Notes under the pieces: model-generated
What the model was told of the DNA's origin: nothing
The model's database searches: none
The model's input: only the letters and a program-made list of their open reading frames with translations
NCBI GenBank assembly: GCA_013414795.1
Contig: CP058732.1
Coordinates: 2,331,737-2,395,736, forward strand
Direction: 5' to 3'
DNA from: Candidatus Kapaibacterium sp.
GTDB lineage: Bacteria > Bacteroidota > Ignavibacteria > Kapaibacteriales > UBA2268
DNA: 64,000 nt
Made by a program: the position numbers and the translations under genes
Part shown: positions 4,403-62,276 of the stretch, in pieces
Numbering within the stretch: the stretch's first letter is position 1
Layout: each line of letters begins with the position of its first letter

Positions 4403-5686
4403 ATGAAGAAACCACTTTTATTGCTCTTTTTTGTCTTTTTCATTGTCACCAACGCATTTCCTCAAAACGTTGGTGAACCTTTAGACAAGATTGTCGCTAT
4501 TGTTGGCGACGAAATGATATTGCTTTCTGACGTAACTGCACAACTTCAAGTTCTTGCTCAACAAGACCCACGCATTGACCCAAACAACCCAACGACACAA
4601 AGACAAATACTCGACCAGTTGATAAACGAGAAATTGGTTCTAATTAAAGCCAAGGAGGATTCGATTACAGTAACAGACGAAGAAATCGACCAACAATGGG
4701 ATTTCCGATTGAAGGCTCTCATCCAACATTACGGTTCAGAGAAAAGAATCGAAGACATCTATGGGATGTCTATCCCAAGACTTAAATCCGAATACCGAGA
4801 CGAAATCCGAAAATTTCTTCTCACCGAGAAAATGAAAGAAAAAAAGTTTGGCAATATCAAAGTGAGCGAACGAGAGGTTAATGAATTCTACGAACTATAT
4901 AAGGATTCGCTTCCAACATTACCCGAGCAAGTGGAACTTTACCACATTGTGAAGAACCTCGTTGCACCAGAAGAGATTCGTCGGCAAAAGTTTGAACTTG
5001 CAAAGAAAGTTCGTGATTCCATCATTCAAACTGGGGATTTTGTTCGATTTGTAAAGTTGTATAGCGACGACATATCATCAGTAAACTCGGGCGGGGAACT
5101 TGGTTGGGTTCCACGAGGGAGATTTTTCCCAGAATTCGAACAAGCCGCATTCAATTTGCAATTGCGAGAAGTTTCGCCTCCAATTGAAACCCCTTTGGGA
5201 TTTCACATTATCCAACTTCTTGGAAAAAGCAAGGACTCCATACTCGTTCGTCACATTTTGTTTAAAATCACTCCAAGCGAAGAGGAAATTCTCAAAACAA
5301 AAAACACACTGGATTCTATCCGAACACTTTTCTATAAAGGGACGCCATTCGAAGAACTTGCCAAAAAGTTTTCTGACGAAACCGAAACATCTGGTGCTGG
5401 CGGGTTTCTTGGTCGATTTCCCATTGAGACGCTTCCAGAAAATATACGCAGCATTGTTGATACTTTGCAAGTTGGAGAAGTCTCTGCCCCAGTTCTTTAT
5501 AAAACACATCCTTACGAATCGTATCATATCATTTACAAAAAACGGGTAATTCCGCCGCACAAACCAACTCCTCAAACAGACTACCGAGAACTCGAACAAC
5601 TTTGCGTTACATACAAGCAAAACAAATTGTACCTTGAATGGATTAACGAACTTCGAAAGACAATTTATTGGGAAATTGTTCAATAA
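4403..5686 (+). CDS. SurA-like periplasmic chaperone/peptidyl-prolyl isomerase
   Basis: Signal peptide MKKPLLLLFFVFFIVTNAF, a SurA-N-like region, and two parvulin domains (GGELGWVPRGRFFPEFE...LGFHIIQL; GGFLGRFPIE...). Tandem with the preceding parvulin gene. Confidence 0.8.
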   Translation: MKKPLLLLFFVFFIVTNAFPQNVGEPLDKIVAIVGDEMILLSDVTAQLQVLAQQDPRIDPNNPTTQRQILDQLINEKLVLIKAKEDSITVTDEEIDQQWDFRLKALIQHYGSEKRIEDIYGMSIPRLKSEYRDEIRKFLLTEKMKEKKFGNIKVSEREVNEFYELYKDSLPTLPEQVELYHIVKNLVAPEEIRRQKFELAKKVRDSIIQTGDFVRFVKLYSDDISSVNSGGELGWVPRGRFFPEFEQAAFNLQLREVSPPIETPLGFHIIQLLGKSKDSILVRHILFKITPSEEEILKTKNTLDSIRTLFYKGTPFEELAKKFSDETETSGAGGFLGRFPIETLPENIRSIVDTLQVGEVSAPVLYKTHPYESYHIIYKKRVIPPHKPTPQTDYRELEQLCVTYKQNKLYLEWINELRKTIYWEIVQ

Positions 5687-5716
5687 AAGTTTTGCGTACA
5701 ACATCGGGCAAATATT

Positions 5717-6634
5717 TTGAACGAGTTAGGCAAAAGAATTTTAGTCGCAGTTATTGGTATTCCCATTACTTTATTGGTAATCTATGTTGGTGGAATTTTA
5801 TTCTTCTTTGTAATTCTTTTGCTTGCCAATCTGACGCTTTTTGAATTTTACAAACTTGCCAATCGTAAGAACATTAATCCATTCATTTTTGTTGGGCTCG
5901 CTTGCAATACTATTATTTTGATTTTCTATTACTTTATCCTACAAAATTCATTCGTTCTGAACAAATCTCTCTTCACAATCGTCTTGTTATTTTTCGTTGC
6001 TTTGCTACCAGCAACGCTTCTTTTCTTCCAAGTTTGGAACAAAAAACCAAATACTACGGTCAACGTCGCATACACAATTTTGGGGATTTTTTGGATTGCT
6101 TTTGTATTTTCGGCAATTCTTACAGTTCGATTCCTTCCAGATTATTTGAAACTTTTTGAAAAGGCAGAAGTTTTCAATTTAAACTATGACTTTTTAGGTC
6201 TTACCTTTCAAATCGACAACCTCTGGTCTGCAAAATTTTTTATTGTAATACTTGGAACAATTTGGCTTTGCGACACATTTGCATATTTTTTTGGAAGTGC
6301 TTTTGGTAAACACAAACTCGCCCCGACAACCAGCCCGAAAAAAAGTTGGGAAGGTGCAATTGCTGGTTTCATCGGTTCAATTATAAGTTTTTCGATATTA
6401 GATTGGCTATTCAAATTGAATTTTTCCTCTGGCTATCAATTACTTTTTGCTTCAATTGTGGGAATCATTGGTCAAATCGGCGACCTTGCAGAATCCAAAA
6501 TCAAGCGTGAGTACAATGTCAAGGACAGTTCCAATATCCTTCCTGGGCACGGCGGTTTCCTCGACCGACTCGACAGCATTATGTTCGTCTTTCCAGCAAC
6601 AATCTTGATAATTACTTTAATTGCTTTATTTTAA
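5717..6634 (+). CDS. cdsA: phosphatidate cytidylyltransferase
   Basis: Polytopic membrane protein with the CdsA C-terminal signature KSWEGAIAGFIGS...GHGGFLDRLDS. Confidence 0.85.
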   Translation: MNELGKRILVAVIGIPITLLVIYVGGILFFFVILLLANLTLFEFYKLANRKNINPFIFVGLACNTIILIFYYFILQNSFVLNKSLFTIVLLFFVALLPATLLFFQVWNKKPNTTVNVAYTILGIFWIAFVFSAILTVRFLPDYLKLFEKAEVFNLNYDFLGLTFQIDNLWSAKFFIVILGTIWLCDTFAYFFGSAFGKHKLAPTTSPKKSWEGAIAGFIGSIISFSILDWLFKLNFSSGYQLLFASIVGIIGQIGDLAESKIKREYNVKDSSNILPGHGGFLDRLDSIMFVFPATILIITLIALF

Positions 6635-6711
6635 AAATAATTTCGAAAAAATTTACAAAACAAAAGTAAATCATTCCTCTACTTTAAGTGTTTCTTACTT
6701 TAAAGATTTGG

Positions 6712-7416
6712 TTATTCGTTCTCGTTGCTTTTCTCTTCAACTTCTCGAATACGATAGCCTACTCCTCGTATACTTTGTATCAGTTGAGGAGCATTTGGGT
6801 CGGTTTCAATCTTCTCACGAAGTCTTTTAATGTATACATCAATAATGTTTGATTCTGGGTCGAAGGAATGTTTCCAAACGTGTTGCAAAATACTGCTTCG
6901 GCTAACAATTCTGTTCTTGTTGCGCATCAAATATTCTAAAAGTGCATATTCTTTGGTAGTCAATTCAATTTCTTTGCCGCCACGGTAGGCAAAATGGGTA
7001 ACTGTGTCGAGTATCAAATCGCCACATTGAAGTTTGGTAGATTTTTCTGGACCAGAACGACGCAAAATAGAACGCAAACGTGCAGTGAGTTCCTCGAAAC
7101 TAAAAGGCTTGGGCAAATAATCGTCTGCACCTAAATCGAGCCCCAAAACTCTATCCTCGGTGGCTCCCCGAGCAGTTAACATCATAATCGGAACGGAAAT
7201 TCCAGCGTTTCGCAATTCACGGACAATAGTGAAGCCATCGATTCCTGGCAACATAACATCGAGCAGAATAGCGTCGTAGTGATTGTTCATTGCAAGTTCC
7301 AAGCCCTTTTTACCATCGTTAGCAACTTCGACGATATACTTTTCCTCTTCCAAGCCGTGTTTAATAAAATTAGCAAGTTTTTTCTCGTCTTCGACAACAA
7401 GAATTCGCATACGCAA
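6712..7416 (-). CDS. OmpR-family response regulator (no adjacent kinase)
   Basis: Receiver domain (ILVVEDEKKLANF...LDVMLPGIDG...ADDYLPKPF) plus a winged-helix output (LTTKEYALLEYL...IRGVGYRI). It lies 17 nt downstream of the large T9SS cargo gene. Confidence 0.85.
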   Translation of the reverse strand: MRMRILVVEDEKKLANFIKHGLEEEKYIVEVANDGKKGLELAMNNHYDAILLDVMLPGIDGFTIVRELRNAGISVPIMMLTARGATEDRVLGLDLGADDYLPKPFSFEELTARLRSILRRSGPEKSTKLQCGDLILDTVTHFAYRGGKEIELTTKEYALLEYLMRNKNRIVSRSSILQHVWKHSFDPESNIIDVYIKRLREKIETDPNAPQLIQSIRGVGYRIREVEEKSNENE

Positions 7417-7433
7417 TCAAAAATTTAATATTA

Positions 7434-10343
7434 TTACTTTACGAAAATAGAAAAAATTTCTTTATCTCCGTTCGATGTTTCAAGCAAAATATAATATAAG
7501 CCAGGGTCGACAACTCGATTGTTAAAATTAGTTCCGTCCCAGAAAACACAATAATATGTTTCTCGGGTGCGTGGGGCATTTTCCAGCAAAGTTTTAACTA
7601 TTCGGTTGGCTTGGTCGACAATCTTGATAGTAACATCAGAATCTACTTTCAAAATGAAACTAACTTCCGCTTGTTCAGTGAACGGATTGAATGGATTTGG
7701 TGAGACTGCATTGATAATGCTTGGTTTACTAATGAATATTGTCGTGTCGGCGACAAGACACTCTTTGGAACAAACAAAACGAAAAGCAATCTTGTCGGGA
7801 AATGTTCTTTGTTGTTCAAATGAATAAACTCCACTTTTTGCATCCAAGTCAGCAATTTTTTTAAATGTAACACCGCCGTCGATTGAAAACAAGACTGAAA
7901 GCGTGTCGCAATTTGGAAGGACATTCCAACGAAAATATTTTGTGCAACACAAAGTATTCGAGGAATCGTATGTAATTGTAAACTGTTCTGGTTTAACCGA
8001 CTTCAAGACTACTGCCGAAGTGTCTTTGTAATCAAATCTTGAATAAATGGCTCTAAATGGCACCTTAGCACTCAGCATAGAAGAAGAATAATCAAAAATT
8101 GGCAAGCAAGGTAGAGTTATCAAACGGGTTTCGTTTGCTTGGGGTTTGAGAATAGTTAGAATATCAAACCATTGTTTACCGTCGATAGAGTATTGCAGTA
8201 ACAAAGTGTCCACGCATAGAGTCGAGAAACTAACGGTTGCATTCGTATAAACATCAATTTGTTGCAAGACTGCTTGGTCGAAAAAAACATTGGGAGCGTT
8301 AAATTGAAAAACACCAGTTGAGTCGAAAACTTGTGTAGCATCTAAAGAATTCTCAATGTACAATATACCAACTTGCCCAAGCAATTGACGACTAACACCG
8401 ATTTTTACCAAAGTGGTTTCTCTATCAATACGAACATTGTTCTGTAAAATGAAAGATTTAGAATATTGGTTTTGGTTGTTTACTCTTGGAACAAATCGAA
8501 CATTGACCGTGTTGTCAGTTTTGGATTTGGATTTAATTGTCAAAAATAGAGTATCGCCGAAGCAAAATTCTTTAATCGAGAATTCATCAAACCTTGGGTC
8601 GACAACTTCTATTAATTTTGGCAATGGGCTTCCAATTAAATAAAGATAATTATTAGTTACCACTACGATATCATTTTTCCCATCTCCATCAACATCAGAA
8701 ACGATTGCCTCCATTATTGTTTCATTTGGAAAATCCTTTATAAAAAGGGTATCGAATGGTTTCCCTAACTTAAAATCAAACGAGTTGTAATCACGCAACT
8801 GCACTATCAAAAGCCTTGAACCATCGACCAGAACAATTTCATCCTTCCCATTTGGTGCACCATCGATGTCATTCACCGAAGCCACCCAACCACTTATACT
8901 TGCAGTGCAGATAGTATCGAATGGAAAAAGAAAGGAGTTTGGTGGATTTGGCTTTGGAATCGGTTTCATTTCGTTATAACGAAGTACCAGCAACTTATTC
9001 CCAGCAACAGAGCCGAACTTTGAACTATATGTTACAATAATCTCTTTCCCAGGATTGTTTGGAAAGTATGGTGGAAAAGAATTTGCCGAGTTTCCATCTA
9101 CATTACCGACCGCAATAGACCACGAGTGGTTGTTTTTACCAACAAAAGAAGGCGAAATAAGATCTCCTGGTAAAGTTATCGCATTTCCATTGCCATCGAA
9201 TAGATGTAATCTTGCTTGACCAAATGAAGAATCTATTCCAAGATATTCTTCTGCAACGAGTAAATATAGAGAATCATTTGTTAACGAGTTGTTCAAAGTA
9301 ACAAAGAATGGACGAACTCTTGGTCTTTTACCGTTTCCGTCAAGTATTGAACTTAATTCCAATGGTTGAAACTTTTGGCGAATCTGATTATTCAAAAGGG
9401 TGTAACCAAGAAGGTAGCATTTCGTTGGGTTGGTTCTATCCAGCGAAATATTGCAAGGAACATTAACATCTGGACCCAAAGAAGCAAAGTTTGGCACAGC
9501 AACATAGAAATTTCCCCCTTCTTGAAAAATTGAGGGCGGAGTAATAGAAACTTCTGGTCCGACAGTTACCCGAAAAATTTGATTATCTGTAATATCTGGC
9601 ATTGGAAAAGTGTACAAAACATTGTTAGATGGAAAGACAGAAAATCCACGGAAGAATTCTGGTGTAGAAGGATTAGTGTCCTTCGCAATGGGATTGTAAA
9701 TATTTGTAGTGGAATAAACCAAAAAATCGCTTCCCAAGCGACGTGCAAAGAAAGGTTTCATAGAGCCGAAAACATTTGGCTTATATTGTCGCATATCAAG
9801 CACCAGCCTTTTAAGCAATGCAATCGTATCGGCTTTGGAATCATACCCAGCAATGTATGTATAAATCAATGTGTCCTTTGGGTTTTCAAACTCAATAGTC
9901 TCCAAACCAAGAACCAAAGTCGAAGTCGGATTGGGATAGTAAGTTGTCGACAAAGTATCGAACAAAACTGAAATATTTTTTACATATTGGAAACCAAATG
10001 TATTGGTTTTATGTGTGAATCCTTTACCATCTACAACAACAACTTTACCACCGACAACTGCAACAATTTCATTTGGAGCATAGGGGAAAGTATCATCAAT
10101 TTTGGCGGTGTCACGAATGATGTTCCCGACGAGGGCTTGAACGTCGCCAGCAATGGATTTATTTCGCCATTTAACAATGAATTGGCTTACATCTTGAGTA
10201 AAAGAAGGAATTTGTTGGTAACGAGTACCTTGTGCATTTCCATTTGGAAATAACCAGACAGCGGGACTTGTAGGAAATGTTTGTGAATAAGTTAGGTAAA
10301 AAGAACTGGCTAATAATAACCAAAAAAATATCTTTCGTATCAT
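7434..10343 (-). CDS. large secreted protein with FG-GAP/VCBS-like repeats and T9SS C-terminal sorting domain
   Basis: About 970 aa. The signal peptide follows the internal Met (MIRKIFFWLLLASSFYLTYSQ). It has integrin-like Asp-rich loops (VDGDGKNDIVVV, GAPNGKDEIVLVDG). The last roughly 90 aa (SPNPFNPFTEQAEVSFILKVDSDVTIKIVD...FWDGTNFNNRVVDPGLYYILLE...) match the Por/T9SS CTD pattern (FlgD-Ig-like). Confidence 0.7.
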   Translation of the reverse strand: MIRKIFFWLLLASSFYLTYSQTFPTSPAVWLFPNGNAQGTRYQQIPSFTQDVSQFIVKWRNKSIAGDVQALVGNIIRDTAKIDDTFPYAPNEIVAVVGGKVVVVDGKGFTHKTNTFGFQYVKNISVLFDTLSTTYYPNPTSTLVLGLETIEFENPKDTLIYTYIAGYDSKADTIALLKRLVLDMRQYKPNVFGSMKPFFARRLGSDFLVYSTTNIYNPIAKDTNPSTPEFFRGFSVFPSNNVLYTFPMPDITDNQIFRVTVGPEVSITPPSIFQEGGNFYVAVPNFASLGPDVNVPCNISLDRTNPTKCYLLGYTLLNNQIRQKFQPLELSSILDGNGKRPRVRPFFVTLNNSLTNDSLYLLVAEEYLGIDSSFGQARLHLFDGNGNAITLPGDLISPSFVGKNNHSWSIAVGNVDGNSANSFPPYFPNNPGKEIIVTYSSKFGSVAGNKLLVLRYNEMKPIPKPNPPNSFLFPFDTICTASISGWVASVNDIDGAPNGKDEIVLVDGSRLLIVQLRDYNSFDFKLGKPFDTLFIKDFPNETIMEAIVSDVDGDGKNDIVVVTNNYLYLIGSPLPKLIEVVDPRFDEFSIKEFCFGDTLFLTIKSKSKTDNTVNVRFVPRVNNQNQYSKSFILQNNVRIDRETTLVKIGVSRQLLGQVGILYIENSLDATQVFDSTGVFQFNAPNVFFDQAVLQQIDVYTNATVSFSTLCVDTLLLQYSIDGKQWFDILTILKPQANETRLITLPCLPIFDYSSSMLSAKVPFRAIYSRFDYKDTSAVVLKSVKPEQFTITYDSSNTLCCTKYFRWNVLPNCDTLSVLFSIDGGVTFKKIADLDAKSGVYSFEQQRTFPDKIAFRFVCSKECLVADTTIFISKPSIINAVSPNPFNPFTEQAEVSFILKVDSDVTIKIVDQANRIVKTLLENAPRTRETYYCVFWDGTNFNNRVVDPGLYYILLETSNGDKEIFSIFVK

Positions 10344-10453
10344 ATAGCCAACCATTTTAAAATATTTGGAAAATAATATACAAAACATCAAATGCAAAAT
10401 ACAAAAAAATTACATATACATAAATTGTACCAAACTCCTGGCGGGTACGATTA

Positions 10454-16855: not shown

Positions 16856-17167
16856 TTAGTTGCTTTTCTTTTCTTCTTTCTTTTCTTTCTTCACTTTCTT
16901 TGTGGCTTTCTTCTCTTCTTTGGACTTGGCTTCTTTCTTTTCTGCTTTCTTCTCTTCTTTCATTTCTTTCTTTTCTGCCTTCTTCTCTGTCTTTGCCTCT
17001 TTCTTTTCCATCTTCGGTTGTTCCTTCTCGGTCTTCATTTCTTGCTTTTTCTCAACTTTTGGCGAGGCTTTCTTTTCTTTCGATTTTTCTGCCGCGGGGG
17101 TTTGGGCGAAAACGCTTGTTGCAATAAATGCTATTGCAACAACTACTGCAATGATTGCTCTTTTCAT
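16856..17167 (-). CDS. secreted low-complexity Lys/Glu-rich protein (KEKK repeats)
   Basis: Start chosen at MKRAIIAVVVAIAFIATSVFAQ (signal peptide) with a GGAG RBS upstream. The mature part is almost entirely (E/K)-K-K-x repeats. The nucleotide sequence is ttctttc-type repeats, which explains the many spurious overlapping ORFs in other frames. Confidence 0.6.
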   Translation of the reverse strand: MKRAIIAVVVAIAFIATSVFAQTPAAEKSKEKKASPKVEKKQEMKTEKEQPKMEKKEAKTEKKAEKKEMKEEKKAEKKEAKSKEEKKATKKVKKEKKEEKKSN

Positions 17168-17306
17168 AAAGAACTCCAAAAAATGTTAAACATACGCCTT
17201 TTGGCGATACAAAATTACTATTTCAAAATATTCGTTATTCATTTTTTGAAAATTTTTTTAAAATTTTTTATTTTAAAATTTCTTCATTTGTCAAAAAATT
17301 TTTTAT

Positions 17307-18265: not shown

Positions 18266-18745
18266 ATGAAAATCTTCTTTTCGTTTGCTTGCATAGTTAT
18301 TTCTTTGCTTTTCACTTTTCAACTTACCGCCCAAGACGGCAACCAAATTAAGATAAGAAAAGTAAAAAAGCAAAGCATCCGAAATGTCGACACCACCTCG
18401 AAAACTATTCAAATCCAGCAACTGAAAAATGAGGCAAAGGTCAAGATTCGCGAAGCCAAAGAGCGAGCAAAGGCAAAAATTCTTGAAGAAAAGGCAAAGT
18501 CGAAAGAAAGAATAAACTTAGCGAAAGAAAAAGCCCGACTTGAAGTCCAAAAGGCAAAGGAAAAAGCGAACAAAGAAGTTCAACAAGTAATCGAAAAAGA
18601 AAAAAAACATATGGAAAAGGTGAAAAAAGAAGCCAATTTAGAAGTCGATAAGGTTAGGAAAGAGTACAACCAGAAAATCCAAAAAATTCTACAAGAAAGC
18701 GCCAACCCAACAAAAAAGAAAAGCAAGGAAAAAGATAATCAGTGA
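18266..18745 (+). CDS. secreted Lys/Glu-rich coiled-coil protein (hypothetical)
   Basis: Signal peptide MKIFFSFACIVISLLFTFQLTAQ, then about 130 aa of K/E/A/Q heptads (KIREAKERAKAKILEEKAKSKE...). Confidence 0.55.
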   Translation: MKIFFSFACIVISLLFTFQLTAQDGNQIKIRKVKKQSIRNVDTTSKTIQIQQLKNEAKVKIREAKERAKAKILEEKAKSKERINLAKEKARLEVQKAKEKANKEVQQVIEKEKKHMEKVKKEANLEVDKVRKEYNQKIQKILQESANPTKKKSKEKDNQ

Positions 18746-20494: not shown

Positions 20495-20524
20495 AATCGG
20501 GTTCCCAGCGTTGGGAACCCGATT
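20495..20524. terminator. perfect 13-bp hairpin between convergent gcvT and carboxylase operon
   Basis: aatcgggttccca gcg ttgggaacccgatt. No strong U run on either side. Probable bidirectional terminator or RNA-processing site. Confidence 0.5.
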
Positions 20525-20557: not shown

Positions 20558-20896
20558 TTAATCAATCAAATCAAATTCAATTAAAACTTGGTCCTTTGCA
20601 ACAACTTCACCGGGTTTAACCAGAATTGATTTGATTTTGGCATTCACAGGCGAGAACACATCGTTTTTCATCTTCATCGCTTCCAAAACGAGCAATGGCT
20701 GTCCTTTCTTGACTTCATCCCCGGGATTTACATAAATTTTTTGGATTACACCAGGAATAAAAGCACGAAGTTTGGTCAAATCGGTCGGCTGATATTTCCG
20801 CCGTCGATGGTATTTTGTTGTTAGCTTTGTTAAATATTTTGAATCTTCAAGAACGAATTCAACTAAATCTTTTTTCTCTTCCATATTTATCTCCAT
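20558..20896 (-). CDS. small biotinyl-domain protein (biotin carboxyl carrier/gamma-subunit-like)
   Basis: C-terminal biotinylation motif LEAMKMKN in a biotinyl or lipoyl-attachment domain, about 108-112 aa long. The start ATG overlaps the carboxyltransferase stop (TAATG). Confidence 0.75.
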   Translation of the reverse strand: MEINMEEKKDLVEFVLEDSKYLTKLTTKYHRRRKYQPTDLTKLRAFIPGVIQKIYVNPGDEVKKGQPLLVLEAMKMKNDVFSPVNAKIKSILVKPGEVVAKDQVLIEFDLID

Positions 20897-22434
20897 TAGA
20901 ATGGCGGAATACCGTGTTTCTTTTTCAAATTTACTTCTTCTTTATTTCGAGAGATAAACAAAGAATGCAAAACATACTTTCGCGTTTCGTCTGGCTCGAT
21001 TACAGCATCTATATAACCATTCGAAGCAGCAACGAACGGGTTTGCAAATTTCTCGATATATTCTTGGACTTTCTGACGGCGGGTTTCTTCGGGATTGGGT
21101 GAGTTCGCAATTTCATTTTTAAAAATAATATTTGCGGCGCCCTCGGGTCCCATAACTGCAATTTCTGCCATTGGCCAAGCAAAGACGAAATCCGCACCCA
21201 GATGGCGAGAGCACATTGCAATGTAACCACCACCGTATGCTTTGCGCATAATAACCGTTATCTTCGGTACTGTTGCCTCGCTGTAAGCATAAAGAATTTT
21301 CGCACCGTGACGAATCACCCCGGCGTGCTCTTGGTCGACACCGGGAAGATAGCCGGGTATATCCACAAGTGTCAGCAAAGGAATGTTGAAAGCATCGCAA
21401 AAACGAATGAATCGAGCGGCTTTGTCGGAGGAATCCACATCCAAAACACCGGCAAGAACAAGCGGTTGGTTGGCAACGATGCCTATGGTTTCCCCATTCA
21501 TCCTTGCAAAACCAATTACAACATTGGGAGCAAAATATTGCATAACTTCAAAAAAGTCTGAATCATCGACAATTGCTTTAATTACGTCTCTAACATCGTA
21601 GGGTTGTCTGGGGTCTTCGGGAATAATGTCAGAAATCTTGTAACTTACTTTTGGAGGCTTTGGCGGAAACGGGTCTGCCTTTTTGCGGTTGTTCCAAGGA
21701 ATGAAAGTAACCAACTTTTTCACCTGTTCGAAGCATTCTTCTTCGGTTTCTGCGAAGAAATGTGCATTGCCGGCTATTTCTGCTTGGACACGGGCTCCGC
21801 CGAGTTCTTCCATCGAAATCTCTTCGCCAAGCACTGTTTTAATAACCTCGGGTCCAGTAATAAACATTTTAGAAATCTTATCGACAACAAAAACGAAATC
21901 GGTCAATGCTGGCGAATAGACCGCACCGCCAGCACAAGGTCCAAGTATAATAGAAATTTGTGGAACCACGCCAGATGCCTTTGTGTTTCTGTAAAATATT
22001 TCACCATAACCAGCAAGGGAATTGACTCCTTCTTGAATTCGCGCACCACCGCTATCATTGATACCAATTATTGGGATACCCAATTTAATTGCGTGGTCCA
22101 TAATCTTCGTAATCTTCCTTGCGTGGGCAAGCCCCAAAGAACCGCCGGCAACGGAAAAATCTTGTGCATAAATACATATCGGATGTCCCATTATACTTGC
22201 CGTGCCAGTAATCACGCCATCACGCGGGAGAAACTTTTTGTCCAAACCCAAATCTGTCGAGGCTTGCTTAACAAACATATCCCACTCGTGGAACGAGCCG
22301 GGGTCAACTATTCGTTCAATCCGTTCTCGTGGGGTTAATTTCCCTTGTTTTTGCTGCTTCTCTTTTGCAATTTTTTCACTTTCTACCACTTGCGATTTCT
22401 TCTTAAAGAAAAAATCGAAGAATTTTCTAAGCAT
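20896..22434 (-). CDS. acyl-CoA carboxyltransferase subunit (propionyl-CoA carboxylase beta / methylmalonyl-CoA decarboxylase alpha family)
   Basis: 512 aa, carboxyltransferase N and C halves. Motifs: GGARIQEG, MGPCAGGAVYSPALTDF, AYGGGYIAM.... Confidence 0.85.
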   Translation of the reverse strand: MLRKFFDFFFKKKSQVVESEKIAKEKQQKQGKLTPRERIERIVDPGSFHEWDMFVKQASTDLGLDKKFLPRDGVITGTASIMGHPICIYAQDFSVAGGSLGLAHARKITKIMDHAIKLGIPIIGINDSGGARIQEGVNSLAGYGEIFYRNTKASGVVPQISIILGPCAGGAVYSPALTDFVFVVDKISKMFITGPEVIKTVLGEEISMEELGGARVQAEIAGNAHFFAETEEECFEQVKKLVTFIPWNNRKKADPFPPKPPKVSYKISDIIPEDPRQPYDVRDVIKAIVDDSDFFEVMQYFAPNVVIGFARMNGETIGIVANQPLVLAGVLDVDSSDKAARFIRFCDAFNIPLLTLVDIPGYLPGVDQEHAGVIRHGAKILYAYSEATVPKITVIMRKAYGGGYIAMCSRHLGADFVFAWPMAEIAVMGPEGAANIIFKNEIANSPNPEETRRQKVQEYIEKFANPFVAASNGYIDAVIEPDETRKYVLHSLFISRNKEEVNLKKKHGIPPF

Positions 22435-22438
22435 AATT

Positions 22439-22735
22439 TCACCTAACTATTTTGAAACTTTCAATATGTTGGACTAATGGGTCGAGAGGATAATTTTCAA
22501 CATCCTCGGGCAACAAAATTCTAATTGTCTTTCGCCCGAATGCTCCCTTTATAGTGTACTCTCCTTTAACAATAACCTTAAAATAAGGTATATCGAACTC
22601 TTCGAAAAGAAGCAATTTCCCAAGTTTGCCAAGATGCTCAACAAAATCTTTTGTTATGGGAGCACTCAGCAGGAAGTCAACCGTATTGCTACTTTCGTAG
22701 CAATCATCAACTTTTTTTTGTTTAACTACTTTCAT
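22439..22735 (-). CDS. hypothetical protein (98 aa)
   Basis: No recognisable motif. Overlaps the upstream class-V aminotransferase gene by 4 nt, so it is part of the same operon. Confidence 0.4.
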   Translation of the reverse strand: MKVVKQKKVDDCYESSNTVDFLLSAPITKDFVEHLGKLGKLLLFEEFDIPYFKVIVKGEYTIKGAFGRKTIRILLPEDVENYPLDPLVQHIESFKIVR

Positions 22736-23877
22736 TTCCTCTTAGGAATTAAGGTTATTTTCCTCACAGCATCAATAAACTTATAGATTTCTTCCTCTGT
22801 TGTAAAATAAGAATGGCTTGCGCGCACGGTTCCCCAAGGTTCCACACCAAGATATGGTAAAAGCAAAGGAGCACAATGTAATCCCGTTCGTACCCAAATA
22901 TCAAACGAAGCCTCCAATACATAGCCAACTTCTTCGGGGACCATTCCTTTCACATTAAAGCAGAAATTAGAATAAGATGTATGCTCGGTTGGACTATAGA
23001 TTTCAATATCTGGATTGTCTCCAAGTTCATCAAAAAGTATTTGATATAATTTCTTTTTGTGTTCAATTATCTTATCCAAACCAGTTTGAAGTAAAAACTG
23101 CACCCCAGCATAGAGCGAAATAATACCCGGGGTATTCGGCGTTCCCGCTTCATAATGAATTGGCATTCCTTCGGGCTGCAAGAGTAATTCGCTTAGGATA
23201 CCAGTCCCGCCAACCTTGAGTGGCTTTGGCTCTATTCCTTTTTTTATGTACAACCCGCCAATTCCTTGAATTCCAAACAAAGACTTATGCCCGGTAAAAG
23301 CAAGCAAGTCGATATCCCAATTCTTGCAATCGATTGGGATTGCCCCCGCAGACTGCGAAGCATCTACGATGAAATATGCACCCGCAGAATGTGCAATTTT
23401 TGAAATTTCGGCAATATTCAATACTGCACCAGTAACATTTGAACAATGGTTAACAACAACTGCACGGGTATCGTCTCGGATTGCTTCGGCTATTTGTTCT
23501 GGATAAACATATCCATTTCTGTCGCATTCTACAACTGTTACTGTAATCTTACCTTCTTTTTCCAGCGTTTTCAAAGGGCGAATGACAGAGTTGTGTTCAA
23601 TTGCAGTAATAACCACATTTCCACCTTCAAGAGGCAAACCTTTGATTGCCAAATTCAATGCTTCGGTGCTTCCCGAAGTAAAAACAATTTGAAGTGGGTC
23701 TTCGATATTGAACAAATCGGCAAGGCGAGTGCGACAAAGATAAACAATATCATCGTCTTCACGCTCCAAGCCTGTACGCGAAGCGTGGACGAGCGGACCA
23801 CTGAAAGATGCCATTACAGCATCTTGAACTTCCTTTGGTTTTGGAAAACTTGTTGCAGCATTATTTAAATAAATCAT
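22732..23877 (-). CDS. aminotransferase class V / cysteine desulfurase family protein
   Basis: IYLNNAATSFPKP start and PLP-lysine motif FTGHKSLFG, about 380 aa. Confidence 0.75.
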   Translation of the reverse strand: MIYLNNAATSFPKPKEVQDAVMASFSGPLVHASRTGLEREDDDIVYLCRTRLADLFNIEDPLQIVFTSGSTEALNLAIKGLPLEGGNVVITAIEHNSVIRPLKTLEKEGKITVTVVECDRNGYVYPEQIAEAIRDDTRAVVVNHCSNVTGAVLNIAEISKIAHSAGAYFIVDASQSAGAIPIDCKNWDIDLLAFTGHKSLFGIQGIGGLYIKKGIEPKPLKVGGTGILSELLLQPEGMPIHYEAGTPNTPGIISLYAGVQFLLQTGLDKIIEHKKKLYQILFDELGDNPDIEIYSPTEHTSYSNFCFNVKGMVPEEVGYVLEASFDIWVRTGLHCAPLLLPYLGVEPWGTVRASHSYFTTEEEIYKFIDAVRKITLIPKRK

Positions 23878-33006: not shown

Positions 33007-33807
33007 TCAATCACCAAAATCGATCAGGAATTGCTTTTCGGATTTCGCTATCGAAATGATTCCCGAGAGGACAAGATTTTTCCGATAATACTTCCTCTCG
33101 TAGTTCCAATTTTGGTATTTGGTCTTAAAATACTCGAACCCACCACCAGTAAACACAATTGGAATTGTTTCTTCTCCAAATCTTTTTCTGCGGATTTCTT
33201 CCAAAATGTAAAGAAGTCCGCCCCAAATTGAATTCTGAATACCACTCGAAATGGCTCGCTCTGTGGAAATTTCCAGAAAATCATCAAAATCTTCATTAAT
33301 AAGTTTATTAACTTTCAACAACGATGTATTTGCCTGCAATGATTTCAGTTGTGTTTCTGGACCAGGAAAAATCAATCCGCCAACGAAATTTCGCTCCTCG
33401 TCGACGCAGTTAATTGTAACTGCTGTCCCAAAGTCTACTGTAATGAGTGGAGGAGCAAATTCTTCCATAGCCCCGATTATTCCAAGAATTCTATCAGTGC
33501 CTATCCAATGGTAATTGTATAGATTCAATTTTTTTTGCTTGAAAATTAAATCTTTGATATTATAAATGTATACATTTGGTTGTGATTTAAGAAAATCGAT
33601 TATAGAATTAGATTGTTCTATGTTAACACTTGAAAATAACACACGCAAAGGGGTTTTAATTTTCGAAAAGAAGAACTTTTCGAACTCTGTCAACAAATTT
33701 TGATTATATCGAAACGACTTGAACACATTTCGATAAAGAATTTTTGCCCGACTGTTTCCAAAGTCGATTGCAAGTGTTTGGTCTAAAAATTTATCCTTCG
33801 AGTTCAT
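33007..33807 (-). CDS. coaX: type III pantothenate kinase
   Basis: LAIDFGNSRAK (Bvg accessory factor fold), GTDRILGIIGA and FTGGGF motifs. Confidence 0.75.
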   Translation of the reverse strand: MNSKDKFLDQTLAIDFGNSRAKILYRNVFKSFRYNQNLLTEFEKFFFSKIKTPLRVLFSSVNIEQSNSIIDFLKSQPNVYIYNIKDLIFKQKKLNLYNYHWIGTDRILGIIGAMEEFAPPLITVDFGTAVTINCVDEERNFVGGLIFPGPETQLKSLQANTSLLKVNKLINEDFDDFLEISTERAISSGIQNSIWGGLLYILEEIRRKRFGEETIPIVFTGGGFEYFKTKYQNWNYERKYYRKNLVLSGIISIAKSEKQFLIDFGD

Positions 33808-34531
33808 ATCTTATTGAGTCCCCATCGCTTATCAACAATTTTTCATTATTGTTAGCAACCGCAATAAGTCTTCCAATTGAATCCATCCCTTCAACTTTGC
33901 AAAGTAGTTGACGATTGACAACAAAAATCTCTTTTCCAATGATATTCAACTTGTTTTTCCAAATTTGAAAAATTTCGTCTGGGAAAAGTTCCATCAACCT
34001 CTCGATTTCTGATATTAAATGATTCACTATATCCTCCACCTTGAAATCATATCCAAGCATTCGAAGAGAAATAGCGGTTTCGCTCAATTCTTTGGGAAAT
34101 TCTTTCTGATTTACATTTATGCCAATACCTAAAACAGTCGAAACACACAAATTCCCAACAAATTGGTGTTCTACAAGAACCCCAGAAATTTTCCGAAACT
34201 TGGAATCTTTCGTTTTAGCATAAATGTCGTTGGGATATTTTAAAGCATATTGGACAGTTGGAGTGATTTTTACCAAAGTATTGTATACTGCAAGAGCACC
34301 AAGCCCTTGAAAATATGCTACCTCCTCGAAGAGCCTTAAATTTGGATGTTTCACACCAAAAGAAAGGTAAACATTTTGTGCATATTCGCCCAGCCATTGA
34401 TTCTTGTTTCTTCCTCTGCCTTGAGTTTGAAAATCGGCAGTTACAACCACACAGTTGTGCTTCTGAAGAAGTTCCTTTGCGTAGTCGTTTGTTGATGTCA
34501 AACGTTCGAAATGATATCTTTGGTAAATCAT
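33791..34531 (-). CDS. birA: biotin--[acetyl-CoA-carboxylase] ligase
   Basis: QTQGRGRNKNQW motif (GRGRxGRxW). No N-terminal HTH, so class I. Overlaps coaX by 17 nt. Confidence 0.8.
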   Translation of the reverse strand: MIYQRYHFERLTSTNDYAKELLQKHNCVVVTADFQTQGRGRNKNQWLGEYAQNVYLSFGVKHPNLRLFEEVAYFQGLGALAVYNTLVKITPTVQYALKYPNDIYAKTKDSKFRKISGVLVEHQFVGNLCVSTVLGIGINVNQKEFPKELSETAISLRMLGYDFKVEDIVNHLISEIERLMELFPDEIFQIWKNKLNIIGKEIFVVNRQLLCKVEGMDSIGRLIAVANNNEKLLISDGDSIRYELEG

Positions 34532-35163
34532 TCTTCGCTATAATGTGCTATTGCTGATTGAATATCGAGTATCATTTTGTCCACAATCAACGAAAGTGCT
34601 TTCGAGAAACTTTTTGCAATTCTTGTGTATTCTCGCTCCTCGAAATCAATTCGTTGAGAGTATATTTGGGACAAAACAACAGGTTTATTTGTCGAAATTG
34701 GTTCATATTTTATAAGATTAATCTGAATCGAAACTTGCACCCAGTTTTTCTTTTTATCCTTCTTTTCTGCTAATGCTTTAAATTCCAATACCTTGCCTTC
34801 GAGAATGAAATTTGGAACAATAGCAGAGTTGAAAGAAGCCACTCCAAACTTGAATGCCTTCGAAAGGTTCATTCGAGAAAAAATGAAATTGTTAATTATA
34901 TCTGCGTAGTCCGAATTGAAACGATGATAGTTGAATTTCTGCACTGTTCCATCATCGAACCAAATCATCAATCGATTGTCGAAAAGTTCTTCGGGAACCG
35001 CAAAGTCTCGGATGACAAGAAAAGTTTCTATTTGAGCAATATTTTTAAAAGATAACAGCTCTTGGTTTAGGTAATAATAATTCGTTGGAATAAATGGTGT
35101 TCGAATAGAAAAACAGCCCGATAAGGCAACAGACAAAGTAATTGTTAAAAGTAATCTTTTCAT
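34528..35163 (-). CDS. hypothetical lipoprotein
   Basis: Lipobox LSGC after a signal peptide. Overlaps the birA start by 4 nt. Confidence 0.45.
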   Translation of the reverse strand: MKRLLLTITLSVALSGCFSIRTPFIPTNYYYLNQELLSFKNIAQIETFLVIRDFAVPEELFDNRLMIWFDDGTVQKFNYHRFNSDYADIINNFIFSRMNLSKAFKFGVASFNSAIVPNFILEGKVLEFKALAEKKDKKKNWVQVSIQINLIKYEPISTNKPVVLSQIYSQRIDFEEREYTRIAKSFSKALSLIVDKMILDIQSAIAHYSEE

Positions 35164-48517: not shown

Positions 48518-49774
48518 ATGAAAAGGATTGGTGTTTATATGTTTGTATTGTTTACATTTATTGTAAACCAAACTTCCTTTTCTACCCCCGAGGCGTATAA
48601 AAACGTTCTTTCCAAAACTGGAACCTACGAAATTGCTAATATCGCTGTGAAAGAGATTATACCCAAATTCAAATTTCTTCTTTCGACCATACCAGATAGC
48701 ATATGGATTGAGTACGAAACGAAATACGATTCGGTTAAACTCTCAATGAAAATCGAAGAGCAAATACAAAAGTTTATCTCATCGGAAAATATTTCTTCCT
48801 ATGAAACGCTTGCAAACGAGTTAATGAAAAATTATCGTAGCGTTGATATTCCCGCTTTCGAGTACTTTCAAAGCAAAATGGATTCAATTCAACTACTTAT
48901 TACCCGTTTGGATACCCTTGAAAATTATCTACGAAACGAGAACTCTTCTAAATTTTTGCCTTTTGAAATTTTTATCCAAGATGTAGACAGCACTAACAAT
49001 TTAGAGTTAAAAATTTATTCCGAGGAAAGCAAAGATACTATACTTATTACCCCAAATAACCTCCAAGATTTATTTTCATATTTATTAAGTTCGTTTATAA
49101 GCAAAGATTCTGCTTTGCTTAAAAATGCAAATTTGATTAATAGAGAATTCCTTACGAATCTAAAAAATTCTATTTCGTTTGTGGATTCAATGAATAAAAT
49201 ACTGTACTCGATGTTAAATTCTGATTCCTTTATTAAGAGTAAAATTTTATTCCGCGACTCATTATTCAAAATAACATTGGATAGTCTTGACGAAATAATT
49301 TCTGAAAGTCAAAAATATTTAGAAAATTCCACGAAGTATTATAAACTTTTCCAAGAATATTTGGACAAAAGTTTAGGAATTTGGAAAAACTATTTTGAAT
49401 TGTACACAAAATATTGGGACGAACTTTTGAAACAAAAAGGAAAAAAAGACAAGGAAATTGAGAAAAAATATCAAAAGAAAATGAAAGAATTGGAAAAAAA
49501 GATGAAGCAACTGGAAAATGAATACAGACGTAAATTCAAAGAACTTGAAGGAACATATAATTCATCGACAAAAAGAAATAATCTGGGAAAAATGCGACAG
49601 AACGAAACATTCGATACCAAAAGTACGATTACTTTACCAGAACTTAAACAGTTGGTTGAAAATCACTACAAGTTTGTAAACAGTTTAATCGTATTGAAGA
49701 AACAAATTGAAATGGAAATTTTAAAAGACTTAAAAGAAAAAGGATATATTGTTGTCGAAGTACCACAAAATTGA
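48518..49774 (+). CDS. hypothetical secreted protein with Lys/Glu-rich coiled-coil C-terminal region
   Basis: Signal peptide MKRIGVYMFVLFTFIVNQTSFS. Its ATG directly abuts the mntP stop (TAAATG). No recognisable catalytic motif. Confidence 0.45.
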   Translation: MKRIGVYMFVLFTFIVNQTSFSTPEAYKNVLSKTGTYEIANIAVKEIIPKFKFLLSTIPDSIWIEYETKYDSVKLSMKIEEQIQKFISSENISSYETLANELMKNYRSVDIPAFEYFQSKMDSIQLLITRLDTLENYLRNENSSKFLPFEIFIQDVDSTNNLELKIYSEESKDTILITPNNLQDLFSYLLSSFISKDSALLKNANLINREFLTNLKNSISFVDSMNKILYSMLNSDSFIKSKILFRDSLFKITLDSLDEIISESQKYLENSTKYYKLFQEYLDKSLGIWKNYFELYTKYWDELLKQKGKKDKEIEKKYQKKMKELEKKMKQLENEYRRKFKELEGTYNSSTKRNNLGKMRQNETFDTKSTITLPELKQLVENHYKFVNSLIVLKKQIEMEILKDLKEKGYIVVEVPQN

Positions 49775-54505: not shown

Positions 54506-56008
54506 ATGATAAAGAAAATTCTGGTCGCCAACCGCAGCGAAATTGCTTGCAGAGTAATCAAAGCCTGCAAAGAACTTGGAATTAAAACCGTTGCGGTATA
54601 TTCCGATATCGATAAACACGCACTCCACACACTTCTTGCAGACGAGTCTGTTTACATAGGGGAATCGCCACCATTGAAATCCTATTTGAATATGGAAGCA
54701 ATAATTGAAGCAGCGAAGAAAACAAATTGCGATGCAATACATCCGGGTTATGGCTTTCTTTCGGAACGAGCCGAATTCAACCGTATGGTTCGCGACGCAG
54801 GGTTAATTTTCATCGGCTCCTCGCCCGAGTCAATGGAATTGCTGGGTTCGAAAGTTCGCTCGCGAATAACAATGATGGAATCTGGTGTTCCCGTTATTCC
54901 CGGAATGAAATCTGCCTGCAAAGATATTTCTATCTTTGTCGCCGAGGCACAAAAACTCGGCTATCCAGTCCTGGTTAAAGCGTCCGACGGCGGCGGTGGA
55001 AAAGGAATGAGAATTGTCCATTCTGAAAACGAATTGGAAGACGCTGTGAACTCGGCAATGCGAGAATCTATCTCGGCATTCAAAAGCGATGCAATTTATC
55101 TGGAAAAATATATTGAATCACCACGACATATCGAGTTCCAAGTCGCTGCGGATAACTACGGAAATGCTGTTTATCTTTTCGAGAGGGAATGCTCAATCCA
55201 ACGCAGACACCAAAAAATAATTGAAGAAACCCCATCTGTTGCCCTCGACCCAGAGTTGCGAAAAAGAATGGGCGAAGCCGCGGTCCGAGCCATTAAAGCC
55301 GCGGGTTACACCAATTTAGGAACAGTAGAGTTTCTTTTGGACAAAAACAAAAACTTTTACTTCCTCGAAGTAAATGCTCGCATTCAAGTCGAACATCCAA
55401 TAACGGAACTAACAACTGGCGTGGATTTGGTTAAACTGCAAATACATATAGCCAACGGTGGGGAATTGCCATTCCGACAAGAGGATTTGGAGCAAAAAGG
55501 TCACGCAATCGAGTGCCGAATTTACGCCGAAGATGCTGAAAACAATTTCTTACCATCAAGCGGAAAGATACTTTACTTGCGGGAACCAACCGGACCTGGA
55601 ATTCGCTTCGACTCTGGTATTTACATTGGTTCGGAAGTTCCTATTTTCTACGACCCGATACTTGCGAAGTTAATCGTTTGGGGCAAAGATAGAGAAGAGG
55701 CAAGGTTGAGAATGATAAATGCATTGAAAAACACAGTGATACTTGGAACAAAAACATCAATTGGTTTTATGATAAAAGTGCTTGAGCATTCGGAATGGAT
55801 TGCTGGTAGAACATACACGAACTTTATCGAAGAGCATTTTGGAAAAAGTTACACAGCCAACGAGGAACTATTGAAATTTGCTCTTGCTGGTGCATTTTAC
55901 TCATTCAGGAACCAAAAGAAAATGGTTGTTTCTTCGAAAACCAAAGAAGAAATTCCATCTCCTTGGCAAACTCTTGGACGTTGGGAAATTGCAATGAGCA
56001 AACATTAG
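54506..56008 (+). CDS. biotin carboxylase subunit of a biotin-dependent carboxylase (AccC-like, ~500 aa with C-terminal extension)
   Basis: MIKKILVANRSEIACRVIKACKELGI..., ATP-grasp, and a biotin-carboxylase C domain. Start at the ATG at 54506. Confidence 0.85.
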   Translation: MIKKILVANRSEIACRVIKACKELGIKTVAVYSDIDKHALHTLLADESVYIGESPPLKSYLNMEAIIEAAKKTNCDAIHPGYGFLSERAEFNRMVRDAGLIFIGSSPESMELLGSKVRSRITMMESGVPVIPGMKSACKDISIFVAEAQKLGYPVLVKASDGGGGKGMRIVHSENELEDAVNSAMRESISAFKSDAIYLEKYIESPRHIEFQVAADNYGNAVYLFERECSIQRRHQKIIEETPSVALDPELRKRMGEAAVRAIKAAGYTNLGTVEFLLDKNKNFYFLEVNARIQVEHPITELTTGVDLVKLQIHIANGGELPFRQEDLEQKGHAIECRIYAEDAENNFLPSSGKILYLREPTGPGIRFDSGIYIGSEVPIFYDPILAKLIVWGKDREEARLRMINALKNTVILGTKTSIGFMIKVLEHSEWIAGRTYTNFIEEHFGKSYTANEELLKFALAGAFYSFRNQKKMVVSSKTKEEIPSPWQTLGRWEIAMSKH

Positions 56009-56016
56009 GAGGATTT

Positions 56017-56508
56017 ATGAAACTATCCTACAAAGGAAAAATATTGGATGTAGAATCTGAAAATGGTTTACTTAAAGTCGATGGAACAACAACACCAGTC
56101 GAAATCGAAAAATGCTCTGAAAATATTTTGAAAATTAAATTAGACGGGTTCGAACGCACTGTCTACATCGCAAACGACAACAAATATGCATATGTTTTTA
56201 TTGATGGCGAACAATACACTTTCCAACAAATTGACGAGTCAATCGAAATCGATGAAACGAGAGCCGAAACTGTTAAAAACGAGGAGCAAATAAAACCACC
56301 GATGCCCGGAAGCGTTGTAAAATTGCTTGTTCAGCAAGGGCAAAGCGTTGAAGAAGGAGCCCCAATCATTGTTGTCGAAGCAATGAAGATGGAAATCACT
56401 CTCTACTCCTCAATAAGTGGCGTTGTTACCGAAATCAATGTAGAGCCGGGGCAACAAGTCGACTCCGACAAAACACTGGTTGTTATCAAACGAAATGAAA
56501 ATGCTTAA
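56017..56508 (+). CDS. biotin carboxyl carrier protein
   Basis: An AGGAGG RBS precedes the ATG at 56017. C-terminal biotinyl domain with VVEAMKMEI. Confidence 0.8.
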   Translation: MKLSYKGKILDVESENGLLKVDGTTTPVEIEKCSENILKIKLDGFERTVYIANDNKYAYVFIDGEQYTFQQIDESIEIDETRAETVKNEEQIKPPMPGSVVKLLVQQGQSVEEGAPIIVVEAMKMEITLYSSISGVVTEINVEPGQQVDSDKTLVVIKRNENA

Positions 56509-62275: not shown

Positions 62276-62276
62276 A

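Follow-up and report, generated by a model that had tools for sequence, protein, structure and literature searches.

The closest described relatives of the system reported here are the acyl-CoA carboxylases, the Na+-translocating methylmalonyl-CoA decarboxylases (MMD) and the transcarboxylase of Propionibacterium. In the holoenzymes of propionyl-CoA carboxylase (PCC) and methylcrotonyl-CoA carboxylase (MCC), a BT domain holds the alpha subunit on a core of PccB-type beta subunits, and the biotin carboxylase (BC) and carboxyltransferase (CT) sites of PCC-type holoenzymes are roughly 55 Å apart. The 1.3S subunit of the transcarboxylase reaches two active sites by a flexible linker. That one BC can serve several separately encoded CTs is established in actinobacteria (PMC4347857). 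Here we describe two loci of biotin-enzyme genes in a 64,000-nt stretch of the genome of Candidatus Kapaibacterium sp. (Ca. Kapabacteria CH6; GenBank assembly GCA_013414795.1, contig CP058732.1, positions 2,331,737 to 2,395,736 of the forward strand), hereafter the window. One locus pairs a PccB-type CT with a very small biotin carrier, here called the mini-carrier, and recurs as a conserved module in several phyla; the other, 32 kb away, pairs a BC with a longer carrier and includes no CT. We tentatively favour reading the two loci together as a split acyl-CoA carboxylase, at somewhat less than an even chance. The features that bear on this reading are listed below.

20896..22434, minus strand: CT of the PccB/MmdA/12S family, 512 aa, of the type called class A below (PF01039)
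20558..20884, minus strand: mini-carrier, 108 aa, or 112 aa if the overlapping ATG at 20896 is used (PF00364)
20672..20674, minus strand: codon of the predicted biotinyl-lysine, K75 of the 112-aa reading frame or K71 of the 108-aa form, in LEAMKMKN (from the sequence)
54506..56008, plus strand: BC, 500 aa, of the acyl-CoA carboxylase type with BC followed by carrier (Biotin_carb_N, CPSase_L_D2, Biotin_carb_C)
56017..56508, plus strand: second carrier, 163 aa (PF00364, E 3e-17)

A profile search of all open reading frames (ORFs) of the window recovered one CT, one BC and two biotinyl proteins, and found no 5S/PycB-like and no epimerase gene. Pfam scans together with precomputed labels, covering nearly all ORFs of at least 150 aa, found no OAD_beta (PF03977), HMGL-like/PYC_OADA or methylmalonyl-CoA mutase in the window. 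The original prediction had placed the only BC of the window at 54506 and had stated that the CT-carrier pair comes without a BC and without OadB/MmdB; both statements agree with these searches, and no 5S gene adjoins the pair either. The BC scores 623 bits on model NF006367, above the cut-off of 597. It is separated by 8 nt from the 163-aa carrier; icd (minus strand) and sucC flank the two genes, and no CT adjoins them. The two carriers are indeed different proteins, as had been proposed; they share the biotinyl domain only, at 37% identity. The enzyme set had further been described as dispersed. The genes do occupy separate loci; they are not randomly scattered, however, and form two complementary modules, a CT with its mini-carrier and a BC with a carrier that has a BT-like domain.

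Related loci were gathered by context look-ups, by a scan of species-representative genomes (alignment A1) and by a metagenome scan. The usable pattern in the genome scan was the generic LEAMKM motif only, and a class-specific DNA pattern was designed for the metagenome scan. ORFs were called in the loci and then searched with the window proteins, which gave 132 related loci with 762 kb of flanking sequence; these locus sets are samples, and all counts given here hold among the loci listed. A CT gene lies directly upstream of the carrier gene in 112 of the 113 non-redundant cases with at least 400 nt of upstream sequence, a pairing far beyond chance. The CTs of these pairs (class A) score about 690-930 bits against the window CT, and the gap between the two genes is at most about 115 nt. 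Homologues of the mini-carrier, 101-115 aa in length, were found in Kapabacteria, Ignavibacteria, Bacteroidia, Cyclobacteriaceae, Acidobacteriota and Aminicenantes, and the best 150 matches of a profile search contained at least 104 near-full-length single-domain members of the family at the 50%-identity level. The stand-alone layout is thus shared by Kapabacteria, Ignavibacteria, Bacteroidia, Acidobacteriota and Aminicenantes as a conserved module and is not an anomaly of this genome.

Three other arrangements were distinguished. Class B loci are clusters of a CT, a BC and a 160-180-aa carrier, with CTs at 550-610 bits against the window CT. Class C loci have the Bacteroidales order mce-mmdA-(small ORF)-mmdC, with CTs at about 565-575 bits, and class D loci combine a Firmicutes CT, a 125-aa carrier with an Ala/Pro linker and a 5S-like gene. 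The flanks of the 132 loci contained no BC and no epimerase gene. A single 5S-like gene was present in them, 3.3 kb from the class A pair of locus L108, which equals the chance expectation for a single-copy gene. The recurrent neighbours of class A pairs are housekeeping genes only (GTPase EngB-like, IspE, RsmH, FtsI and others). With such neighbours, no BC and a 5S-like gene at chance level, the partner of the module is therefore not inferable from neighbourhoods.

The assignment of the 512-aa protein to the PccB/MmdA family was borne out by profile classification: PF01039 covers residues 26-508, corresponding to profile positions 1-491 of 493 (E 1.1e-191, Pfam scan). This is a full-length two-lobed carboxyl-transferase domain of the PccB/AccD5 type, in which GPCAGGAVYSPA and YGGGY align with the oxyanion-hole glycine motifs of PccB (G182/G183 and G419/A420). 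Its closest solved structure is 1VRG, the Thermotoga maritima 'PccB' (715 bits), and it is roughly equidistant from Streptomyces coelicolor PccB (1XNW, 600 bits), Ruegeria PCC-beta (591 bits), the 12S subunit (1ON3, 585 bits) and others. Since all of them share one half-reaction, sequence alone cannot separate a carboxylase from a decarboxylase or a transcarboxylase.

The substrate pocket offers a further distinction. Where S. coelicolor PccB has D422, the window CT carries Ile, in the motif RKAYGGGYIAM, and the same residue occupies this position in 84/84 full-length class A CTs. Asp was found there in 18 CTs of BC-linked clusters (Flavobacteriia, the L057 cluster, Gemmatimonadaceae and others), and Ile or Cys in MmdA-type, Firmicutes and Bacteroidales class B CTs. 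Asp at this position is conserved among propionyl-CoA-carboxylating enzymes (PMC7835884), and where that paper cites Diacovich 2004, D-to-I changes are said to raise acetyl-CoA use by PccB-type enzymes. Because the window CT carries Ile instead of Asp, class A is not a canonical PCC beta subunit. The Ile-type pocket suggests a relaxed specificity, for acetyl-CoA as well as propionyl-CoA, rather than a strict propionyl-CoA carboxylase, with the D422-equivalent residue being one determinant of specificity and not the sole one.

For the 163-aa carrier, an AlphaFold2 (AF2) model of moderate quality (pLDDT 75) shows eight beta strands in residues 2-71 and a disordered linker that leads to a biotinyl domain. 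Its full-length Foldseek matches are the BT domain plus biotin carboxyl carrier protein (BCCP) region of MCC, PCC and eukaryotic acetyl-CoA carboxylase, and the protein is predicted from the model to consist of a BT-like domain and a BCCP. A BC-linked carrier with such a domain would therefore be built to dock on a PccB-type CT. Against the AccB model TIGR00531 the protein scores 35.7 bits (cut-off 115.2). The modelled fold also points to the subunit named 'BCCP' as the bearer of the BT function in three-subunit acyl-CoA carboxylases.

These observations can be joined in a simple scheme. The class A CT, expected from homology to form a hexameric core, and the mini-carrier would constitute the carboxyl-transfer half of a biotin-dependent enzyme, in which a carboxyl group moves reversibly between carboxybiotin on the mini-carrier and a short acyl-CoA, so that acetyl- or propionyl-CoA is interconverted with malonyl- or methylmalonyl-CoA. 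The BC encoded at 54506-56008, most likely the source of carboxybiotin here, would carboxylate carrier-bound biotin at the expense of ATP and bicarbonate. Together with the BT-type carrier it would dock in trans on the class A core, which would then pass the carboxyl group to acetyl- or propionyl-CoA. The domain families, the biotinylation motif, the constant pairing of CT and mini-carrier and the existence of a BC paired with a BT-type carrier but with no CT are observed; that the two modules associate, in which direction the reaction runs, on which substrate, and what the second carrier does are our inferences. Several observations support the scheme. The BC and BT-type carrier have no CT of their own, and the class A CT is the sole PccB-type CT in 64 kb. 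An independent metagenome-assembled genome (MAG) of the Ignavibacteriales repeats the two separate modules: its class A pair (L012) and its stand-alone BC with a long carrier (L063) lie on different contigs. The Ile at the D422 position agrees with the reported gain in acetyl-CoA use. Outside its own family, the mini-carrier most resembles carriers of 160-180 aa from BC-containing clusters (E 1e-13 to 1e-10) and, less closely, the 148-aa MmdC-type carriers (E about 1e-9). Finally, whereas decarboxylase-type loci place an OadG/MmdD-like anchor gene between those of CT and carrier, class A loci lack one.

Several points weigh against a split carboxylase. With no linkage between class A pairs and a BC in the 132 loci and their 762 kb of flanks, the pairing of the two modules rests on their co-occurrence in the window and in one MAG. 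A second, Asp-type PccB elsewhere in the 2.66-Mb genome could be the real partner of the BC; a search with the L057 CT, whose best 120 matches were all from Zixibacteria, Gemmatimonadota or Acidobacteriota, was uninformative on such a protein in CH6. The reading also leaves unexplained why a second, short-tethered carrier exists beside the BT-type carrier. Three further points both count against it and favour a different enzyme, namely the soluble part of a Na+-translocating (methyl)malonyl-CoA decarboxylase, in which an OadB/MmdB encoded elsewhere would decarboxylate carboxybiotin and pump Na+. The best NCBIfam model of the window CT is mmdA (TIGR01117), although the score of 765.8 bits stays below the cut-off of 998.8. 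The closest solved relative, 1VRG, sits in a decarboxylase-like operon of a CT, a 99-aa transmembrane (TM) protein with a weak OAD_gamma match (E 0.007) and a carrier. Moreover, Thermotogales are reported to have no BC at all (PMC3199775).

A decarboxylase would also agree with the Ile or Cys of MmdA-type CTs at the specificity position and with the frequency of class A pairs in anaerobic Bacteroidia. The original prediction had argued against it from the missing adjacent mmdB, but this argument fails because the MMD genes of Bacteroidales are spread over two loci, each with an mmdC, so that a distant mmdB is normal (Xylanibacter, PMC11575231; compare L059 and L090); the Thermotoga CT and carrier likewise have no adjacent beta subunit. 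What does speak against a decarboxylase, besides the sub-threshold mmdA score and the lack of an OAD_beta in the window, is the architecture of the module. The class A gaps are too short for an OadG/MmdD-like anchor, whereas the decarboxylase-type loci L211, L062 and L090 have a small ORF at this place, and the mini-carrier has neither the long Ala/Pro linker nor the charged linker of MmdC/1.3S-type carriers. In addition, Bacteroidales have separate mce-mmdA-x-mmdC loci whose CTs reach only about 565-575 bits against the window CT, and class A is therefore a different paralogue. On balance we regard the decarboxylase as unlikely. Three of the Bacteroidales loci collected (L059, L062 and L090) have the order mce-mmdA-(small ORF)-mmdC without an adjacent mmdB, which fits the two-locus MMD of Xylanibacter ruminicola.

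The mini-carrier bears on the remaining alternatives. It is a bona fide biotinyl carrier, as had been proposed: it matches PF00364 (E 1.3e-16, Pfam scan) with the motif LEAMKM, and FIPG...LEAMKM with the biotinyl-lysine is invariant across the 23 aligned homologues of alignment A1. With the (E/V)AMKM motif placed at the hairpin turn of its flattened beta-barrel domain (PF00364), the protein is predicted to be biotinylated. The N-terminus is also conserved (consensus xIDDTxYxTxLTxKFxKRKxYxPxDP) and has no Ala/Pro-rich linker. In an AF2 model (pLDDT 88), residues 11-24 form a beta-hairpin; a short helix and then about 10 further residues lead to a biotinyl domain of standard form, which is modelled at pLDDT 93-97 and superimposes on Pyrococcus horikoshii BCCP at 0.8 Å rmsd. 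The linker consists of about 10-20 conserved basic residues (KRKxYxPxDP; pLDDT about 72). The long flexible Ala/Pro/Gly-rich linker of the 1.3S/MmdC type is thus absent, though an N-terminal hairpin is present. Scores on the AccB model TIGR00531 (38.9 bits, cut-off 115.2) and the MmdC model NF047903 (40.8 bits, cut-off 200) both fall below threshold. The longest NCBIfam match, from residue 14 on, is to the C-terminus of pyruvate carboxylase subunit B, and in Foldseek the whole protein aligns with the last PT/BT hairpin and BCCP of pyruvate carboxylases and PCC-alpha.

This profile of matches raises the possibility that the pair is the 12S plus 1.3S-like part of an ATP-independent transcarboxylase, whose PycB/OadA/5S-like subunit, free of a BCCP, would be encoded elsewhere and which would interconvert oxaloacetate/pyruvate and (methyl)malonyl-CoA/acyl-CoA. 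The size and layout of the carrier, an N-terminal anchoring segment followed by a biotinyl domain, resemble 1.3S, and both its best NCBIfam match (pyruvate carboxylase subunit B) and its best Foldseek matches (PT hairpin and BCCP of pyruvate carboxylases) point the same way. In Firmicutes, loci L040 and L076 hold a CT, a small carrier and a 5S-like gene in one cluster, and the L076 CT (672 bits) scores above PCC- and MMD-type CTs against the window CT. The BCCP-less PycB-like gene near the class A pair of L108 and the divergent PCT proteins of unknown function reported in Chlorobi (PMC3199775) could be further hints. We nevertheless consider a transcarboxylase rather unlikely: the window has no 5S/PycB-like gene, the single 5S-like co-occurrence in 132 loci is at chance level, and the carrier lacks the flexible linker. 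A literature search on ATP-free malonyl-CoA synthesis by transcarboxylation returned nothing relevant.

The 5S-like gene of L108 deserves a separate remark. At 5263-6990 (plus strand) of this Bacteroidota metagenome contig, it encodes a divergent PycB/OadA/5S-like CT of 575 aa with a charged helical C-terminus instead of a biotinyl domain, and the protein therefore needs a separate biotin carrier. One may imagine, more broadly, that the class A module represents a so far uncharacterised class of enzymes that work without a BC in the FCB group and Acidobacteriota, for example a transcarboxylase with a BCCP-less PycB-like subunit comparable to that of L108. Such an enzyme would make malonyl- or methylmalonyl-CoA from oxaloacetate without ATP, and the hairpin of the mini-carrier would complete a PT/BT-like domain of the partner in trans. 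We judge this idea improbable.

The tether of the mini-carrier raises a last alternative, in which this protein is redundant or regulatory, filling the biotin site of the CT or buffering carboxybiotin, while catalysis proceeds through the BC, the BT-type carrier and the CT. The enzyme would be complete without the mini-carrier, and the short, conserved, structured tether seems unsuited to a swing of the length that separates BC and CT sites. Plant BADC proteins are a precedent for carrier-like regulators. Yet the biotinyl-lysine and its context are invariant in 23/23 aligned homologues and a CT accompanies the carrier in 112/113 loci, which argues for a catalytically used carrier under strong selection; a purely regulatory or redundant role accordingly appears quite improbable. 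The split acyl-CoA carboxylase remains our tentatively favoured reading.

At the junction of the two genes the minus strand reads ...CCATTCTAATGGAGATAAATATGGAA..., in which the CT stop TAA, following a TTC codon, overlaps an ATG. The original prediction had taken this TAATG overlap as the site of translational coupling. The overlap itself exists, and the small ORF that starts there (20896..20558, minus strand) encodes 112 aa including the biotinyl domain; as the real start, however, this ATG probably gives way to a second one at 20884, 12 nt downstream. The second ATG is the start position of all 22 aligned carrier homologues, it has a GGAG box 6 nt on its 5' side, and public gene calls give the mini-carrier 108 aa. 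For these reasons the 108-aa form with an 11-nt spacer after the CT is probably the true arrangement, as judged from these signals. An 11-nt spacer is still tight enough for coupled translation, and the spacers in related loci measure 2-10 nt. The CT and carrier proteins of CH6 have the public accessions QLH54737.1 and QLH54738.1.

Two further features flank the pair.

20495..20524, minus strand: hairpin with a 13-bp stem
22439..22735, minus strand: orf98, 98 aa, without a Pfam or NCBIfam match

The hairpin stem (13 pairs, 7 of them G-C) begins 33 nt past the carrier stop, between convergent genes; its T-tail is weak, and it is likely the transcript end. Upstream on the same strand lie rpmI, rplT, pheS, a TIGR01977 cysteine-desulfurase-family gene and orf98, with gaps of -4 to 78 nt, and the CT-carrier pair is therefore the tail of a housekeeping gene string. 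A sigma-70 promoter scan of the operon found sites no commoner than in shuffled sequence. The orf98 gene shares an ATGA overlap with the cysteine-desulfurase-family gene (22732-23877, minus strand), and 4 nt separate its end from the CT start. The order desulfurase-orf98-CT-carrier is kept in the Kapabacteria-type loci L006 and L111 and not in other lineages. We considered orf98 as an MmdD/OadG or epsilon-like accessory subunit and rejected it: searches of its 98 aa gave no Pfam/NCBIfam match, no OAD_gamma match and no TM segment, it has no similarity to the 99-aa ORF of Thermotoga, and it is tied to the cysteine-desulfurase-family gene in Kapabacteria only. It is operon context and may be a partner of the desulfurase.

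One other gene of the window touches on biotin.

33791..34531, minus strand: biotin protein ligase family gene (PF03099, E 1.4e-12)

The ligase would biotinylate both carriers. A type III pantothenate kinase gene (33007-33807, minus strand) adjoins it. In L006 (10290-11814), the ligase/kinase block, with a nitroreductase, a phosphoesterase and ClpB, sits 2 kb downstream of the CT-carrier pair, compared with 11 kb in the window, which indicates a local rearrangement.

The window holds some additional features unrelated to biotin. At 57818-59479 and 60017-62275 (both plus strand), one protein has a C-terminal sorting domain of the type IX secretion system and another a PorZ-like N-terminal beta-propeller; the two indicate a type IX secretion system in this Kapabacteria genome. 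For four ORFs, of 987, 418, 520 and 211 aa (7434-10397, minus; 48518-49774, plus; 62256-63818, plus; 34528-35163, minus), no Pfam family was matched at E <= 1e-3 to 1e-5. Two low-complexity proteins rich in Lys and Glu, with KEKK repeats and signal-peptide-like N-termini, are encoded at 16856-17179 (minus) and 18266-18745 (plus), and a long ORF antisense to the former is a repeat artefact.

In public databases the module carries the names 'acyl-CoA carboxylase beta' and 'acetyl-CoA carboxylase BCCP' (or 'hypothetical'), although it lacks defining features of a strict PCC, an MMD and a transcarboxylase alike. It belongs to a widespread, routinely annotated and apparently uncharacterised sub-class of biotin-enzyme genes. 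As the module occurs in environmentally abundant lineages (Kapabacteria, Ignavibacteria and Bacteroidia), its reaction type affects how propionate, succinate and fatty-acid metabolism is reconstructed for many MAGs. It is also an example from nature in which two different carriers may serve one CT core. Should it prove to be a plain split carboxylase, the gain would be better annotation only. A literature search on methylmalonyl-CoA decarboxylase or propionyl-CoA carboxylase in Kapabacteria and Ignavibacterium returned nothing relevant.

When compared with described systems, the window resembles the three-subunit acyl-CoA carboxylases of the archaeal/Bacteroidota type, represented here by class B clusters such as L039, L048 and L057, which use the same three protein families, a BC of about 500 aa, a carrier of about 165 aa and a PccB-type CT. 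The window BC and 163-aa carrier are exactly of this type, in the order BC then carrier, and the CT fold with its GPCAGGAVYSPA and GG motifs is common to both. In class B, however, the three genes are adjacent and the CT usually has Asp (18 cases), whereas the window CT lies 32 kb off, has Ile and reaches about 550-610 bits against class B CTs; the window also adds a second carrier of unrelated length. The MMD Na+ pump of Veillonella and Propionigenium (MmdABCDE) resembles the CT locus in that a small carrier follows its alpha subunit, a PccB-family CT. The split MMD of Xylanibacter ruminicola (PMC11575231), with dispersed genes and one carrier copy per catalytic module, follows the same logic as the window. 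The differences are the missing OadB/MmdB, OadG/MmdD-like anchor and long flexible linker in the window and a CT score below the mmdA cut-off, and Bacteroidales possess, besides a class A pair, their own mce-mmdA-mmdC locus.

The Propionibacterium transcarboxylase shares with the window a 12S-type CT (585 bits to 1ON3) and a free-standing carrier, about 100-125 aa long, whose N-terminal segment serves as an anchor. It differs in its 5S gene, which the window lacks and to which related loci show no linkage beyond chance, and in its Ala/Pro/Gly-rich linker, which is short and conserved in the mini-carrier. The Thermotoga maritima TM0716-type CT (1VRG) shares the Ile, and a small carrier follows it; neither a BC nor a beta subunit lies next to them. 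In contrast to the window, the Thermotoga operon (L211) has a TM protein between CT and carrier, and its carrier has 137 aa, a long charged linker and a different N-terminus. In Thermotoga sp. SG1, the L211 genes (7001-9243) encode the CT, the 99-aa TM protein with the weak OAD_gamma match and the 137-aa carrier. The name 'propionyl-CoA carboxylase beta' given to 1VRG in the PDB is doubtful for a lineage reported to have no biotin carboxylase. Finally, in the actinobacterial acyl-CoA carboxylases (AccA3; PMC4347857), BC and CT are encoded at separate loci and joined in trans, as we propose here; there, however, the carrier is fused to the BC and the CTs bring an epsilon subunit, whereas the window CT brings its own carrier, predicted to be biotinylated.

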